Assembly: GCA_044360195.1 (NCBI GenBank)
Contig: JBIKKT010000015.1
Span: 429-64,428 of the forward strand
From: Bdellovibrionota bacterium
Lineage (GTDB): Bacteria > Bdellovibrionota_C > UBA2361 > OMII01
Reading direction: 5' to 3'
DNA length: 64,000 bases
Part shown: one piece after another, positions 25,923 through 47,110 of the stretch
How the letters are laid out: the number at the start of each line of letters is the position of its first letter
How positions within the stretch are numbered: position 1 is the first letter of the stretch
Position numbers and translations under genes: made by a program
The notes under the pieces: model-generated
Told to the model about the DNA's origin: nothing
The model's input: the letters and a program-made list of their open reading frames with translations, nothing else
Database searches by the model: none

Positions 25923-26125
25923 GCCCGAGTGATGACCCTCCTACGCCAAGGCTCCGGCGGGTTTTTGCAGGGGCGCGATACATATGCCCGAGTGATGACC
26001 CTCCTACGCCAAGGCTCCGGCGGGTTTTTGCAGGGGCGCGATACATTTGCCCGAGTGATGACCCTCCTACGCCAAGGCTCCGGCGGGTTTTTTGCAGGGG
26101 CGTGATACATTTGCCCGAGTGATGA
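25923..26125 (+). repeat. Three tandem 63/63/64-bp repeats, each starting with the first 13 nt of tRNA-Leu and containing a REP-like GC hairpin plus T-tract
   Basis: Units start at 25923, 25986 and 26049: GCCCGAGTGATGA-CCCTCCTACGCCAAGGCTCCGGCGGG-TTTTT-GCAGGGGCG(C/T)GATACAT(A/T)T. A fourth GCCCGAGTGATGA at 26113 continues as tRNA. Confidence 0.95.
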
Positions 26126-26150
26126 AATGGTAGACATACGGGACTTAAAA
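26113..26150 (+). pseudogene. 5' half of the original host tRNA-Leu(TAA), ending at attL
   Basis: GCCCGAGTGATGAAATGGTAGACATACGGGACTTAAAA. Its anticodon-stem strand CGGGA pairs with TCCCG of the 3' half at 47015-47019. Confidence 0.92.
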
Positions 26151-26286
26151 GAAAGTGACTGAACGTATGCCCGAGTGATGAAATGGTAGACATACAGGAC
26201 TTAAAATCCTGGGGGAGAAATCCCGTGTCGGTTCAAGTCCGACCTTGGGCAGTCTAATCAATCACTTACGGTCACTTTCTTTTAAG
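26144..26286. repeat. Perfect 16-bp inverted repeat flanking the island-borne tRNA
   Basis: CTTAAAAGAAAGTGAC (26144-26159) and GTCACTTTCTTTTAAG (26271-26286). Confidence 0.93.
26169..26251 (+). tRNA. tRNA-Leu (anticodon TAA), complete, island-borne; CCA not encoded
   Basis: Acceptor GCCCGAG/CTTGGGC-A, D-loop GG, anticodon stem CAGGA/TCCTG with loop CTTAAAA, variable arm GGGA-GAAA-TCCC, T arm GTCGG-TTCAAGT-CCGAC. Confidence 0.97.
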
Positions 26287-26419: not shown

Positions 26420-27787
26420 ATGACTGAAGCTACGTTACATCATGTGTGTGAGGGGGCTGTCGTTCTCTATAAGCGAGATGGCAGCAATACAGAGTGCTGG
26501 TATGCACGATTCAAGAACCCCAAGACGGGCAAATGGAAGAAGTTCAGTACCAAGGTCACCGACCTCGAAAAAGCGAAGCAAATCGCTCAACGACAGTTCG
26601 ATGTACGGGTCGAGCTAATCAAGAACAACATCGACATTGATACGAAACGGTTCTCATACGTCGCTGATTACGTCACCAAACAGCTCCAGGCTGACATCGA
26701 TGCTGGCACTGGTAAGAAGACCTACGAAGACTACATCCGTGTAATCAATCGCTTCAAACAGTTCTTTGGAAATAAGTATATCGGCAACATCACCTATCAA
26801 GACCTTGTCGAGTACGATCAAGAGCGCACCCGCAAACTAGGTCGAAAGGCAAAGCAATCAACGGTAAATCTCGCAAACGTCGCACTGACAAAGGTGTTTA
26901 AGACAGCCATCGAGAAGGGCTGGATGCACCAGTCGCAAGCGATTTCTTTCAGAAACGATGGAAAGAGAGGGGAGCGACGACCTTACTTTGAGCTGCACGA
27001 ATATCAAAAGCTCTATAGGTTTATGCGTGAGTACGTGAAGCTAACAACTAAAGACAGCCCTCAGGGAGGCGTTAAGAACCAGACGCTCATGATTCGAGAG
27101 CTGATGCGAGACTATGTGCTCTTTCTGGCGAATACAGGCTTGCGGCACGGCACAGAGACCAAGAACCTCAAATGGAAGCACATCTCTGAGACGACCATGA
27201 ATGGACAGAAGTTCATCGTAATCGCCCTTGAAAAGGGAAAGACAGGTAAGCGTACCATCGTCTGTCGTCATAGCGTCAGAAAGTACCTAGTTCGCATCAA
27301 GGACCGATTTGCACATCTCAAAGAGCGACACCTAGGGCAGATGCTCGATATCGATGAGCCTGTATTTCGATGTCGTGACGGCTCTGTGCCGAAGGACTTT
27401 CACGGTGCGTTCAGAATCATGATGGAGAAGGCTGAGCTGCTCAATGACGTAAGCGGAGCAAGGCGCTCCCTCTACTCACTGCGGCATACCTATGCGACTT
27501 TTCAGATTATCTACAACAAACTCGACCTGCATACCCTGGCGAAGAATATGGGAACGTCCATAGCGATGCTGGAAAGGCATTACTCTCACCTAGAGGTGCT
27601 GCATAGGGCTGAGGCGTTGGCTGGCAAGGCAGAATCGAAGCCTAGGAAGGTTAAATCAGGTGAAACTCGTATAATCCAGCTTAATAGTGACTTGCAGGCT
27701 ATAAATTCGGGGCATGATACCGAGGTCCTGACGACTGATGGTTGCGCTAAGCCCCAGATTTACGGTCCAGGGAGCACCTCGAAGTGA
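26420..27787 (+). CDS. Tyrosine recombinase / phage-type integrase
   Basis: N-terminal arm-binding-like beta domain (WYARF...KFSTK), catalytic NTGLRHGTE, GKTG, YSLRHTYAT, KNMGTS, RHYSH. GGAG RBS. Confidence 0.95.
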   Translation: MTEATLHHVCEGAVVLYKRDGSNTECWYARFKNPKTGKWKKFSTKVTDLEKAKQIAQRQFDVRVELIKNNIDIDTKRFSYVADYVTKQLQADIDAGTGKKTYEDYIRVINRFKQFFGNKYIGNITYQDLVEYDQERTRKLGRKAKQSTVNLANVALTKVFKTAIEKGWMHQSQAISFRNDGKRGERRPYFELHEYQKLYRFMREYVKLTTKDSPQGGVKNQTLMIRELMRDYVLFLANTGLRHGTETKNLKWKHISETTMNGQKFIVIALEKGKTGKRTIVCRHSVRKYLVRIKDRFAHLKERHLGQMLDIDEPVFRCRDGSVPKDFHGAFRIMMEKAELLNDVSGARRSLYSLRHTYATFQIIYNKLDLHTLAKNMGTSIAMLERHYSHLEVLHRAEALAGKAESKPRKVKSGETRIIQLNSDLQAINSGHDTEVLTTDGCAKPQIYGPGSTSK

Positions 27788-33612: not shown

Positions 33613-33657
33613 GACCATTTGTGGAGTCTGTTGTCTACCGCTCTAACCAGAAATGAC

Positions 33658-34599
33658 ATGAAGATAGATCGAATGGTGGTTGATCGGTTTATCCGCCACT
33701 ATGCAGGCGCCTTCGATCTGCCCTTCGAGTTAAAGCTGGTTCCCGAAGATGATAGCGCCACACCTGCAAACCAGCGGATAGAGGCGATATATGAAGTTGG
33801 CAGGGTCGCCGTTCATGTCGAACACACCTCCTTCGATATGTTTCACTCTGGTGCTTCTCCAAAGCGTGAGCTTGATGAGGGTTTTAAGGAGTTGGAGTCA
33901 GTTCTGGTCCAAGCGGACTTTCCCTGTCATCCAGGTTTGGTAGTGTTTGTGAGTATGAAGGCGGTTGCTAATCGAAAGAAGCTGCAAGGATGCTTTGACG
34001 ACATTATCGGTGGTATTCATTCATTCTTACGACGTGTAGAAGATACCACAGTTAACTGTGAGCCATACAAGGCTACTAGGCTCCGGTGCGGAAGTATCGA
34101 GTTATCGGTTTGTCTAGACCCACTGCTAGAAGGTAAGACTTCTCTTGAGTACGTCGCTTCATCCGAGAATCGGTATAGCTCGTCGGAGCTCATTAAAATG
34201 TATCAGAAAGCCTTTGCTAAAAAGGTTGAAAAGCTGGGGAGGTCGGTTAGCTATCACGGAGGAGGAGGGATTGGGCTTCTCTTGATAGAGAATCATGATG
34301 TGGCAGTGCAGAGTCCGTTTGTCTTTGACCGAATGTTCAACGAGACTCTGAGGGAGTCTAACGATGGTTGCCATGAGGTTTGGCTTTTGAGGTCCGGGCA
34401 CCGCTCGCTACTGTGGCTGAGAGAATACGATCTGATGCATTGCGACGGAAGTCGTGTGGATTTATCGACTGCTCAATATGCGCTCTCTCATCGAGAACAG
34501 CGATGGCGCCTATGGCGGGAGAGTCGTGAAAAGATGTTTAGCTGTGACGTCACTAACAAGATACCTCAAGGGACCCCGAATCGCCTCGAAGTTGACTAA
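33658..34599 (+). CDS. Hypothetical protein, possible PD-(D/E)xK-like nuclease
   Basis: Co-oriented directly after hsdS. PE...IE......VEHTS pattern and a later LLLIE.D motif. ATG 33658 preferred over TTG 33619. Confidence 0.6.
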   Translation: MKIDRMVVDRFIRHYAGAFDLPFELKLVPEDDSATPANQRIEAIYEVGRVAVHVEHTSFDMFHSGASPKRELDEGFKELESVLVQADFPCHPGLVVFVSMKAVANRKKLQGCFDDIIGGIHSFLRRVEDTTVNCEPYKATRLRCGSIELSVCLDPLLEGKTSLEYVASSENRYSSSELIKMYQKAFAKKVEKLGRSVSYHGGGGIGLLLIENHDVAVQSPFVFDRMFNETLRESNDGCHEVWLLRSGHRSLLWLREYDLMHCDGSRVDLSTAQYALSHREQRWRLWRESREKMFSCDVTNKIPQGTPNRLEVD

Positions 34600-42670: not shown

Positions 42671-42946
42671 CTAAACACGAAGGGCTTTCTCAATGGCCGT
42701 CAATTCTTCAGCTACTCGATAGAGAAATTGCACGACCTGTAGGTGTTGCTCATGCTTGGTGAGAACTATGTTGATGTGGATCTCCATACCATCTTGGTTA
42801 ATGTCGAAGAGCTTTGAGAGAGATGGACTGTAAGCATCTTCACTAAGGGGGGCTTCTCGTTTATGGAACTGTTTGAACTTCATTAGGGCCATCTCTGATC
42901 TTTTCTCTGTAAGGCTAGTCGGGCATTCAATCAACACGTTACTCAC
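42671..42946 (-). CDS. Small hypothetical protein (91 aa)
   Basis: GTG start overlaps the stop of the upstream ORF; third gene of the small-ORF operon. Confidence 0.6.
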   Translation of the reverse strand: MSNVLIECPTSLTEKRSEMALMKFKQFHKREAPLSEDAYSPSLSKLFDINQDGMEIHINIVLTKHEQHLQVVQFLYRVAEELTAIEKALRV

Positions 42947-43134
42947 TGCTCCACAATAATAACTAGAACGTCTCGATAATCTTTGATCGCTAAATCAAGC
43001 TCTCTTATAACCTTGGCTCGCAATCGTTGCTTCTTGGATATTTCCAATGCTCGTTCGATCTCATGTATGTAGAGTGCCTTGGGTTTTGTCTCTGACAGCT
43101 TTCTAGCAGCTTCTTGTTTTGTGGTTTTCGACAT
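42943..43134 (-). CDS. Small basic hypothetical protein (63 aa)
   Basis: GAGGA RBS before ATG; helical, K/R/E-rich. Confidence 0.65.
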   Translation of the reverse strand: MSKTTKQEAARKLSETKPKALYIHEIERALEISKKQRLRAKVIRELDLAIKDYRDVLVIIVEQ

Positions 43135-43168
43135 AGATCCTCGTTCACATTAAAGGTGATACCCCGTG

Positions 43169-43408
43169 CTAGTAGTCACGCTCATGAAGATATTTATCGA
43201 GCTTTAGTTTCGTGGCTTTCAGTGATTCCTGCTGTTGAAGGAAGGCGTCGAGACTAAGAAGCTCTTCATCAATCTTGGCTTTGAGAAACATTCTGATAAG
43301 GGCTAGCCGTGTGATGCGTCTGGATTGTGCGAGCGTGTTCAGATCTTCAATCCATTGAGGTTCTAATAAGAGTCTTAGCTGAGTGAATTTAGGCTTCTTT
43401 ATAGACAT
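43169..43408 (-). CDS. Small protein, ribbon-helix-helix (CopG-like) DNA-binding candidate
   Basis: FTQLRLLL (beta) - WIEDLNTLAQSRRI - TRLALIRMFL pattern; AAGGAAG RBS. Confidence 0.65.
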   Translation of the reverse strand: MSIKKPKFTQLRLLLEPQWIEDLNTLAQSRRITRLALIRMFLKAKIDEELLSLDAFLQQQESLKATKLKLDKYLHERDY

Positions 43409-43456
43409 CGGTTTTTCTTCCTTAATGACTTTTATTTTGTATCTACACTGTATAGC

Positions 43457-43464
43457 TATTTATA
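43457..43464 (-). promoter_or_regulatory. T4-late-type promoter box TATAAATA (candidate) upstream of the small-ORF operon
   Basis: Exact TATAAATA on the minus strand, 48 nt before ATG 43408, with no sigma70 -35 at 17-nt spacing. Confidence 0.5.
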
Positions 43465-43495
43465 AGGGTTCTAATCTGAAAAGAGATCTCAGAAG

Positions 43496-43529
43496 CATCG
43501 TGATTCTCACGATGACGAGCTTCGCTCGT
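43496..43529 (-). other. Two abutting perfect hairpins with GAA triloops on the minus strand
   Basis: Plus strand CATCGTGA-TTC-TCACGATG directly followed by ACGAGC-TTC-GCTCGT. The minus strand contains GCGAAGC. Confidence 0.8.
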
Positions 43530-43584
43530 GGTTTAGTTTGAGTTCTGTTTGTAGGGCCTGTTTTCAAATCTTTTAATGACTTTC

Positions 43585-44005
43585 ATAGTGTGCGGTAGTT
43601 TTGAGATACACTTCGCCCATCAAAGGCGAAGATGATGATGTGCGTATAGCTCATCGATACTTTGTGTTTGCACGTAGCTCCTTTTGAGAGCGAGGGCGGT
43701 TGGGCGGTCTCCTCGTAAGTGCAGCTCGCTGGTGTCCTAGCGGCAAGCATCATCAAAGCCAACACAACGACTTCGAGTGCTTTGCGAGTTCCAAGTGTAG
43801 GGATTGCTCGCATCGTGATGGATCGCATTTTCATTATTAAAGCCACCTGTGGTCGTTCTACGCCGTGAAAGTTCCATCTTACTTTGGGCACTTGGACAGG
43901 TGTGCGACTTAGGGGAGTCAATGGAAGTATGACTGCAAGATCTTATTGGGTCGCTATTTTCGAAACTCAGCTCAGTGCTTTATTAGTGGCTGAGTCGAGT
44001 TTCTG
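43585..44005 (-). ncRNA. Candidate large structured non-coding RNA (~420 nt)
   Basis: At least ten nested stems and two pseudoknot-type pairings (see findings). Begins just downstream of TATAAATA. Confidence 0.6.
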
Positions 44006-44010
44006 TACTC

Positions 44011-44018
44011 TATTTATA
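44011..44018 (-). promoter_or_regulatory. T4-late-type promoter box TATAAATA (candidate) upstream of the structured RNA
   Basis: Exact TATAAATA on the minus strand, 7 nt before the first stem, with no -35. Preceded by a GCCTC/GAGGC hairpin (44033-44049). Confidence 0.5.
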
Positions 44019-44244
44019 CAATTTTAAAGCTCGCCTCGTTTATGGAGGCAGATTTTTCAATTACATATTAGGGCCGGCTATTTGGAATGGTCTGTCTCCT
44101 CAGTCTCACTACGGGGTCGCAAGAGAGTTCGGCGTGATGGTAAGGAAGCGTTCCGATAAACTCGCTGTTCTATGGATCCATTTTAGGTGTCTTCAAATCA
44201 GCTCTCCCCGATTGGTAACGCATTCCTTACCTAGTGGCTTTTAG

Positions 44245-44886
44245 TTAGGACGATCTGACGAGCACTGCATGATGCCCGAGATTGTCAAGATTACCCTCAG
44301 CCATTATTCCCTTGAGCGTGGCCAACTGTTCTTGGGTCAGTCGTCCGAGCATCATGGAAAGCATGTATCGGTCGCAGGCAACCCCGCAATGCTCCGTAGG
44401 TTCAACAAGTCGACCATGCCCGTCTCTGTAGAATTTTACCTTGAGGTAGAGCTCTGGCTCTGCCGGCGGGTAGAGATCTATGAAAGGCTTTGGATTGACT
44501 TCGACTACCTCCGCAACGAAGAGGCCGAAAGAGGAGAAGGCAGACCAATTGCCAAGCACATGGCAACCCACAAGGGCTGCTACGGAGGTCTTTAGGGATA
44601 AATCTACAAGGTACGTGACGATTGTGTGATCTCTTCGACGCAGCTCATCTGACCATTCGTGAGTTATGAGAAAGGGAGTACTTTGGCTCTCGCTAATCTC
44701 GTTGCACACCTCAATTATTTTATCCCGAGTAAACCCTCTGAAAAATCGTAGAGGGATCTGTATTCCTTCTTGTTGGCTAGACGTCGGCATATTGTCGGCT
44801 CCAACCTCAAGGGATCGGTCAATCAAGTACTGAAGCACCTGATTTCGTACTCGATCTCTCTTTGAATTAATCGTTTTCTTAACCAT
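44245..44886 (-). CDS. Hypothetical protein (~213 aa)
   Basis: Long ORF; ATG 44886 has AAAGG upstream (ORF track starts at 44982). No recognised motif. Confidence 0.65.
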   Translation of the reverse strand: MVKKTINSKRDRVRNQVLQYLIDRSLEVGADNMPTSSQQEGIQIPLRFFRGFTRDKIIEVCNEISESQSTPFLITHEWSDELRRRDHTIVTYLVDLSLKTSVAALVGCHVLGNWSAFSSFGLFVAEVVEVNPKPFIDLYPPAEPELYLKVKFYRDGHGRLVEPTEHCGVACDRYMLSMMLGRLTQEQLATLKGIMAEGNLDNLGHHAVLVRSS

Positions 44887-44993
44887 ATTATTAACCTTTA
44901 AAAAATACAGAGCGTTAGGGCTAACGTGCTGTATGTATTGTTTAATTAAGGGGTTAGTGCACAAACTATTGTTCATGCACATACCAAGCTTGA

Positions 44994-45132: not shown

Positions 45133-45819
45133 ATGAATGTTTTCGCATACCTAAGGGTAAGTACCTCAAGACAGGCTGAGGATGGGCTCTCTATAGAAGT
45201 TCAGGAGCAGCAGCTTGAGGCTTATGCGAACTTGCACAACCTCTCTGTAAACCGATGGCTGAGAGACCGTGGAATCTCTGGATCCATACCCCTAAGTGAT
45301 AGACCTATGGGAAAGCAGCTCCTAGAGGAGGTGCGCTCTGGTGACGTGGTCATCGCAGCTAAGTTGGATCGTATGTTCCGAAATGCCAGAGATGCTTTGA
45401 ACACTTTGGAAGCCCTCAAGAACAAGGGGGTAGCACTGCATTTCATCGATCTTGGGGGAGATGTCTGTAATGGTATCGGCAAGCTAGTCTTTACGATTCT
45501 TTCGGCTGTGGCAGAGCAAGAGCGGAGCAGAATTAGGGAGCGCATCTCTGAGGCAAAGAAGCAGATGCGAGACGAGAACCGTTATCAGGGTGGGAAGATA
45601 CCCTTTGGATATCGAGTTAATTCTGAGAACCAGCTAGTAGAGGACGAGCTCCAGCAGAGATGCATCATCTTCATGCGGGCGAAGCGAAAAGAGGGGTTGG
45701 CTTACAGAATGATTAGCGACCTCTTAAGAAAGGAGCTCGGCGTTGCTTTATCGCATTCGGGTATACGGAAGATCCTCATCGGTGAGAGACGAACCGATGA
45801 TGCAGATAATCAGAAATGA
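45133..45819 (+). CDS. Serine recombinase (resolvase/invertase family)
   Basis: YLRVST..Q, D.GISG, KLDRMFR, AVAEQER..IRER, GG.IPFGY. Confidence 0.95.
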   Translation: MNVFAYLRVSTSRQAEDGLSIEVQEQQLEAYANLHNLSVNRWLRDRGISGSIPLSDRPMGKQLLEEVRSGDVVIAAKLDRMFRNARDALNTLEALKNKGVALHFIDLGGDVCNGIGKLVFTILSAVAEQERSRIRERISEAKKQMRDENRYQGGKIPFGYRVNSENQLVEDELQQRCIIFMRAKRKEGLAYRMISDLLRKELGVALSHSGIRKILIGERRTDDADNQK

Positions 45820-47007: not shown

Positions 47008-47059
47008 CTTAAAATCCCGGGATCGAAAGGTCGTGTCGGTTCGAGTCCGACCTTGGGCA
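47008..47059 (+). pseudogene. 3' half of the original host tRNA-Leu(TAA), beginning at attR
   Basis: CTTAAAA-TCCCG-GGATCGAAAGGTC-GT-GTCGGTTCGAGTCCGAC-CTTGGGC-A. Confidence 0.93.
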
Positions 47060-47110
47060 CTCTAAGCAGTTCAATTACCGAAGCCATCTGTGGTAAGACT
47101 GTAGCCGACG

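Follow-up and report, generated by a model that had tools for sequence, protein, structure and literature searches.

We examined a 64,000-nucleotide (nt) stretch of contig JBIKKT010000015.1, hereafter called the window, from a Bdellovibrionota bacterium whose draft genome comprises 3.5 Mb at 51.7% G+C. The window contains a low-G+C island of 20.8 kb that is bounded by attachment-site (att) repeats in the 3′ sequence of tRNA-Leu(taa). In order, the island carries an integrase gene, a type I restriction-modification (R-M) system, a gene for a 326-aa protein without a family, a Zorya type I system (zorABCD), three small minus-strand open reading frames (ORFs), 836 nt of noncoding DNA, and genes for a 245-aa protein without a family, a serine recombinase and an Mrr-type nuclease. 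It also encloses two copies of the 8-mer TATAAATA, one ahead of the three small ORFs and one ahead of a structured-RNA-like region in the noncoding DNA. The original prediction had taken these boxes for T4-type late promoters that answer to an infecting phage. We report that the boxes are part of the backbone module in a family of tRNA-integrated islands that occurs in one order of Bdellovibrionota and carries variable defense cargo. Judged by their conservation, they are not chance words. With moderate confidence we consider them functional promoter cores, most likely read by the host polymerase under the control of a ribbon-helix-helix (RHH)-like protein.

Position and conservation of the boxes

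The window holds exactly two copies of TATAAATA, both on the minus strand (boxes 1 and 2, Table 1). Box 1 ends 48 nt before the ATG of ORF1 (43408), for which a Shine-Dalgarno sequence, AAGGAAG, is found at 43417-43423, and 7 nt separate box 2 from a stable hairpin. After box 1, the minus strand has ORFs of 79, 63 and 91 aa in succession. The coordinates, strand and spacings of the original prediction, as well as the three ORFs that it placed after box 1, were all confirmed. When the window was shuffled with its dinucleotide composition preserved (n = 100), TATAAATA occurred 0.75 times on average and at least twice in 18 of the shuffles, so the bare count of two is not significant. The whole genome has 44 copies in 3.5 Mb, which translates into 0.26 expected per 20.8-kb island, and the local composition of the 836-nt noncoding stretch predicts 0.02-0.035 copies on its minus strand. 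The longer word TATAAATA-N1-4-TACAG has four occurrences in the genome, three of which lie in its two modules.

The second of these modules is a diverged one on contig C63 (L024:9147-10570, minus strand), where a box, an RNA, a box, an RHH-like ORF and two small ORFs follow one another as they do in the window. It is located in another tRNA-linked island, along with a type III R-M system, a reverse transcriptase (RVT_1) fragment with an exonuclease, a resolvase and a short tyrosine recombinase. Its ORF1 is 46% and its ORF2 27% identical to those of the window, and its ORF3 has no detectable similarity. The C63 module nevertheless has TATAAATA 48 nt before ORF1 and a second copy about 616 nt further upstream.

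Five of 61 genomes searched initially, and five of 91 searched later, contained the segment 42688-43823 or part of it, the window's own genome included. The segment has counterparts of 80-88% identity in three genomes of the genus, and part of it is present in one genome of another family. Further carriers are a metagenome-assembled genome (MAG), L009, and four metagenome contigs. The L009 module is complete, 79% identical and equipped with both boxes; as this MAG is assigned to Pseudomonadales, another phylum, its presence there indicates either horizontal transfer or a binning error. In an alignment of nine rows, several of them near-duplicates, box 1 is invariant in all nine, and box 2 is exact in six of the eight rows that reach it, being lost in G012 and its near-copy L019.

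The set was enlarged with relatives of the C63 type and with matches to a covariance model of the RNA (see below), giving 13 distinct modules for box 1 and ten lineages for box 2. Box 1 is exact in 11 of the 13 modules, the other two having GATAAATA and CCTAAATA, and TAAATA is present in all 13. It starts 36-56 nt before the ATG of ORF1 in every module, while the 45 nt upstream of it vary freely, and it is kept although the identity of ORF1 drops to 37-46% and the flanks diverge. Since box 1 is also retained in three of the four modules without upstream RNA homology, it appears to act independently of the RNA. Box 2 is exact in six of the ten lineages, namely the window, G025 (with L022 and L018), G003, L009, the C63 module and G038:C29. 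It reads TATATATA in G057 and TATAAAATA in G061 and is unrecognizable in G012/L019 and G047. Conservation of the box upstream of ORF1 homologs, proposed earlier as a check, is thus borne out, and so is the placement of each box at the 5′ end of its unit, which holds in the window and in relatives. The caveat that an AT-only 8-mer can occur by chance is answered as well: because both positions are conserved across diverged modules, the boxes are taken to be functional elements.

Copies outside the modules were also inspected. One lies 29 nt before a phosphoglycerate mutase gene and was considered as a possible host promoter; it is not kept in 29 relatives and was set aside as a chance copy, which, being unconserved, says nothing about host use of the word. 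On contig C82 (L025:11222-11503), about 270 nt of G+C-rich noncoding DNA separate TATAAATAtgTACAG from an inverted copy of the box; a PhzF-like gene lies on one side and an AbiEi/AbiEii pair on the other. The noncoding stretch has no Rfam match; contig C62 and two other genomes share a core of about 100 nt with it. The closest relative to extend over both ends, G012:C64, has kept the antisense box only. Back in the window, a terminator-like plus-strand hairpin with a run of T (44033-44049) sits just upstream of box 2 in the opposite direction, where no plus-strand gene ends.

Table 1. Features of the island ends and of the two-box module in the window.
Feature	Position	Strand	Remarks
attL	26200-26260	+	3′ part of tRNA-Leu(taa); integrase gene 26420-27787 comes next
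ORF3, 91 aa from GTG	42671-42946	-	no family; relatives start at an ATG that gives 73 aa (42671-42892)
ORF2, 63 aa	42943-43134	-	helical, no family; 27% identical to C63 ORF2
ORF1, 79 aa, RHH-like	43169-43408	-	first gene of operon; strand-helix-helix pattern
Two ATACA repeats	43438-43454	-	11 nt apart, directly after box 1; candidate RHH operator or conserved 5′ untranslated element
Box 1, TATAAATA	43457-43464	-	exact match; putative core promoter of RHH-led operon
Two adjacent hairpins, then CTTCT	43496-43529	-	3′ side of RNA region; -16.5 kcal/mol, z -2.07; no canonical terminator
Structured-RNA-like noncoding region, ~0.5 kb	43490-44003	-	putative ends; no Rfam match
Conserved RNA core	43583-43828	-	covariance model R1; 56-pair consensus fold
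5′ stem-loop	43962-44003	-	7 nt after box 2; -15.5 kcal/mol, z -3.56, 0/200 shuffles as good
Box 2, TATAAATA	44011-44018	-	exact match; putative core promoter of structured RNA
attR	47008-47068	+	61-nt repeat of tRNA 3′ part, 84% identical to attL copy; G+C climbs again here

The structured RNA and the putative RHH-led operon

The core of the RNA region between the boxes is near-invariant and better conserved than the adjacent genes, even where ORF1 is only 56% identical. When both module types were aligned, 17 of the 56 pairs in the consensus fold covaried, compared with 6.5 ± 1.9 after shuffling (0/500 as high) and with 0-3 in slid controls. A covariance model built from seven sequences picked up three additional members, which belong to other families of the order; it matched in 8 of 91 genomes of the order and in none of 33 other genomes of the class. 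With these three sequences added, 28/56 pairs covaried (14.0 ± 2.4 shuffled, 0/500; slid controls 3-10), a figure that leans towards structure because the alignment was fitted to the model. A scan of the region against Rfam (gathering score or E ≤ 10) gave no match; only tRNAs and one chance microRNA match with an E value of 1.4 were returned. Neither did a blastn search of the RNA against its own genome reveal an antisense target, as it found only the RNA itself, the best other match being 17 nt long with an E value of 0.1-0.4. A 112-aa ORF that runs across the region lacks conservation at the protein level: its amino acid identity is 52-84% over nearly identical DNA, and it has no equivalent in C63.

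The hairpin at the 5′ end is found at the same place, 5-10 nt after box 2, in all five lineages of the window's module type, with differing stem sequences. Its position right after box 2 fits what is expected for the 5′ end of a transcript. The two hairpins on the 3′ side are invariant in all rows of the window's module type, except for one arm in G012. A hairpin with a run of T in the C63-type modules was examined as a terminator and rejected, as the terminator scan did not call it and its fold is no better than those of shuffled sequences. The RNA and the operon are adjacent and in the same orientation in all nine RNA-bearing modules that have both parts on a contig. A separate transcript and a long leader are both conceivable for the RNA.

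ORF1 has 23 close relatives, one of which is named a RelBE/DinJ-type antitoxin by a source. In an alignment (A7) of ten ORF1 sequences that are 37-95% identical to the first, the conserved pattern fits strand-helix-helix. A prediction of the ORF1 dimer scored 0.41 against a mark of 0.42. Family searches with ORF2 and ORF3 returned no family; for the ORF3 of C63, the ESM Atlas offered weak four-helix-bundle look-alikes to a low-confidence model, from which we draw no function. The operon has a fourth gene in eight of 12 related loci, and this gene is excisionase-like: all four of its proteins that were tested match HTH_17 (PF12728) with E values of 1e-12 to 1e-13 (46.6-51.2 bits against a cut-off of 27). 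This lends some support to the link with excision that was proposed for the island. In the window the fourth gene is absent, zorD ending 44 nt past ORF3.

Short repeats follow both boxes. Downstream of box 1, two copies of (G)ATACA are spaced 10-11 nt apart; GATACA is present in 12 of 13 modules, at a distance of 7-14 nt from the box. One copy, (G)ATACAG-like in sequence, comes after box 2. These repeats are a likely operator of the RHH-like protein.

Probable promoter type and reader of the boxes

The -10 hexamer of sigma-70 promoters has the form TAnnnT, and the extended -10 consensus is TGnTATAAT. In a consensus scan neither box was part of a sigma-70-type site, and no register of TATAAATA yields TAnnnT. 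The best -35 match at spacers of 15-19 nt was 2/6 for box 1 and 3/6 for box 2, in agreement with the earlier observation that neither box has a sigma-70 -35 at canonical spacing. Among the box 1 sites, a -35 match of at least 4/6 is seen in two of 13, which is about the chance rate, and no TGn is conserved. Among lineages of the window's module type, the four that have kept box 2 show a TG directly upstream of it, which misses the register of an extended -10 by one base. As a positive control, host tRNA genes displayed TTGACA-17-TAnnnT, which is clear in tRNA-Ile, Ala, Gly, Asn and His; a strict two-hexamer test was passed by 4/42 host tRNA genes versus 1.4% of shuffles. Hexamer enrichment upstream of 687 crudely called genes gave no promoter signal, not even TTGACA, and was uninformative, hence the use of the tRNA upstream regions instead.

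We propose that the boxes are conserved -10-type core promoter elements of a control module with two units. Box 2 would start the structured RNA of about 0.5 kb, with the stem-loop at its 5′ end, and box 1 would start the operon led by the RHH-like DNA-binding protein. This protein may repress both units through the (G)ATACA repeats after the boxes. The reader would be the host RNA polymerase with a housekeeping or an alternative sigma factor, perhaps together with an additional, so far unknown factor. The repressor-type first gene, with repeats across the start site, suggests that transcription needs no phage; the RHH-like protein would then keep it in check. Since the operon ends in an excisionase-like HTH_17 gene in most relatives, the module probably sets the excision and maintenance state of the island. 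The looser box 2 variants TATATATA and TATAAAATA look like an ordinary AT-rich -10 rather than a strict late box.

Several observations weigh against this proposal. Because the T at -7, a -35 and TGn are all lacking, TATAAA should be used poorly by the housekeeping holoenzyme, and the strict conservation of the 8-mer exceeds that of a usual -10. Membership of ORF1 in the RHH family is tentative: its family matches were all below threshold (PRK11675, an RHH-type LexA-regulated protein model, E 0.0055 and 17.1 bits against a cut-off of 62; DUF6364, E 0.09), a profile search against PDB sequences found nothing below an E value of 0.3, and the AlphaFold model of the single chain is all-helical (pLDDT 75.8). 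An HTH_17 gene is present neither in the window nor in G025 nor at either module of this genome. Finally, the terminator scan and folds identified no canonical terminator between the RNA and box 1, so that the RNA could be a long leader.

The original prediction holds instead that the boxes are T4-late-type promoters that respond solely to a gp55-like sigma factor from a T4-like phage during infection. Both units, RNA and operon, would then be silent until late infection and thereafter serve excision, hijacking or abortive infection. T4 late promoters have the consensus TATAAATA, with its core about 6-7 nt upstream of the start, a spacing with which the hairpin 7 nt after box 2 would be compatible, and no -35; cyanophage late promoters have the looser form NATAAATA. 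The boxes accordingly have the profile of a T4 late promoter, and what would tie them to a phage is the identity in sequence alone. They lack both a -35 and TGn, all eight positions are kept across diverged modules, the variant GATAAATA would fit the cyanophage form, and the island is a defense island with an excisionase-like gene in relatives. On the other hand, a strict late box is ill matched by TATATATA and TATAAAATA at box 2, by the loss of box 2 in G012/L019 and by CCTAAATA at box 1. A first gene of the autoregulator type with repeats over the start site also implies activity without phage. T4 late promoters require gp55, gp33 and gp45, according to a published account (PMC6024815). Our search of the genome with T4 gp55 returned no relative, which is weak evidence as this is expected if the phage is lytic. 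Viral contigs contained no match to an RNA 20-mer or to the ORF1 profile, and neither phage records nor plasmid records matched the module. We know of no T4-like phage of Bdellovibrionota. In the literature, as far as its text was available to us, we found no precedent for a phage late sigma factor that recognizes a promoter of a host or an island, and nothing on these islands. Taken together, we regard activation by a phage sigma factor as unlikely, and we are equally doubtful that the boxes are decoy late promoters at which late phage transcription itself triggers excision of the island, hijacking or abortive infection.

Three other explanations give the boxes a different role or none. They could be protein-binding or recombination sites, for a serine or small tyrosine recombinase or a nucleoid protein, that flank a deletable or invertible segment. 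A resolvase gene is indeed found near the module in three loci and a gene for a 194-aa tyrosine recombinase beside box 2 in four; the boxes are direct repeats around the RNA region, the inverted copies on C82 flank about 270 nt, and the window and G025 differ in where the resolvase stands with respect to the module. Such a role is quite improbable, however, since three of the four modules in which both the RNA and a second box are absent still have box 1 at its set distance from the start of ORF1, the shared sequence of only about 9-15 nt lacks the dyad symmetry of known serine-recombinase sites, most loci have no resolvase, and the hairpin immediately downstream of box 2 agrees with the 5′ end of a transcript at this point. 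We also give little credence to an arrangement in which box 2 is the sole promoter and the 0.5-kb RNA a long cis-acting leader, for instance an attenuator or a sensor, with box 1 embedded in it as an RNA-level or operator element. The lack of a canonical terminator and the constant, co-oriented pairing of RNA and operon would agree with a leader, but modules that lack the RNA also conserve box 1 and the repeats after it, and the 8-mer and TACAG-like element common to both boxes suggest a common function. That both 8-mers are functionless AT-rich words is hardly credible. Chance copies do exist, as the one before the phosphoglycerate mutase gene illustrates, and shuffled windows often enough contain two; yet both positions are conserved across diverged modules, including the second module with its ORF1 of 46% identity, and the local noncoding stretch is expected to contain only a few hundredths of a copy. 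We thus return to host-read promoter cores under RHH control as the explanation that we favor.

The island family and its likeness to known systems

Integrases that are 88-97% identical and the module co-occur with differing cargo. We therefore consider the integrase and the module to be the backbone of the island and the defense genes to be its cargo. Type I R-M, Zorya I and Mrr, all named as cargo in the original prediction, were identified with Pfam, PHROGs and PADLOC. These sources named only integrase, R-M, Zorya, resolvase and Mrr in the island and no replication, capsid-redirection or packaging gene. The absence of capsid genes noted in the original prediction agrees with this; in the gene-content test for a phage satellite (P4, PICI or PLE type) the island failed, as neither a replication nor a packaging gene was named.

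Several features of the island stand apart from the module. A second, 93% identical copy of the 5′ part of tRNA-Leu, 56 nt upstream of the gene (26107-26150 versus 26163-26206), may be a scar that an earlier integration or excision left at this tRNA. The 326-aa protein (33619-34599), encoded after hsdS, has no match in Pfam, PHROGs, PADLOC or NCBIfam. Since an 84% identical copy is kept beside R-M genes in G025, it may be an uncharacterized partner of the type I system. The gene for the 245-aa protein (44245-44982, minus strand) lies directly upstream of box 2 and is found in no related locus; in the C63 module, unrelated proteins of 191 and 146 aa occupy its place. The resolvase gene is on opposite sides of the module in the window (45133-45819) and in G025 (L013:6537-7205), the two proteins being 66% identical, and this change of side indicates that the island end was rearranged.

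We conclude that the island has a probable control module, in which a new RNA family is combined with a putative promoter core that is unusual and strictly conserved. The module appears to control a family of tRNA-integrated defense islands, hitherto undescribed, from a little-studied phylum. The RNA of about 0.5 kb has support from covariation and no Rfam family; large RNAs are seldom discovered anew in bacteria, and such finds frequently point to new biochemistry. For the host, the putative promoter cores are unusual, and they coincide with the T4 late box, which raises the question of whether a mobile island senses the late transcription machinery of a phage. Should the host polymerase read them, they would represent a -35-independent promoter class in this phylum. 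Either outcome would inform how such islands decide when to excise.

The boxes and the module can be compared with four known systems. Like -35-less sigma-70 promoters (TGnTATAAT), the boxes consist of a lone AT-rich, -10-like element, with a TG upstream of box 2 in four lineages. They differ in the register of this TG, which is off by one base, and in that box 1 has no TG and TATAAA no T at -7; host tRNA promoters, moreover, have a clear -35. With T4 late promoters, for which gp55 acts together with gp33 and the gp45 clamp, the boxes have in common the same 8-mer and the absence of a -35 and of an extended -10; their position would fit a start a few bases downstream. Unlike T4 late promoters, they reside in a chromosomal island of Bdellovibrionota with no gp55 or T4-like phage linked to it, the variants of box 2 are looser, and any dependence on gp55 is hypothetical.

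The satellite phage P4 has a small immunity RNA upstream of a regulated operon, and its late promoters are switched on by the late activator of its helper. The island resembles the P4 control region in its tRNA-gene integrase, its defense cargo, an RNA gene that is upstream of and co-oriented with a regulatory operon, and the lack of a usable -35. In contrast to P4, the island RNA is about 0.5 kb rather than less than 100 nt in length and unrelated in sequence, no primase, capsid-size or packaging gene was seen, no helper is known for the island, and the two boxes share no upstream activator dyad. Compared with the modules of a repressor and an excisionase (RHH or helix-turn-helix plus HTH_17/AlpA-type) that control integrative elements and phage-inducible islands, the island module has two extra family-less small proteins, a large structured RNA unit and an invariant TATAAATA core, and the window copy has lost the excisionase-like gene. 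It resembles these modules in its small first gene for a putative DNA-binding protein, in the excisionase-like last gene in 8/12 loci, and in its location in a tRNA-integrated island with an integrase and att repeats.

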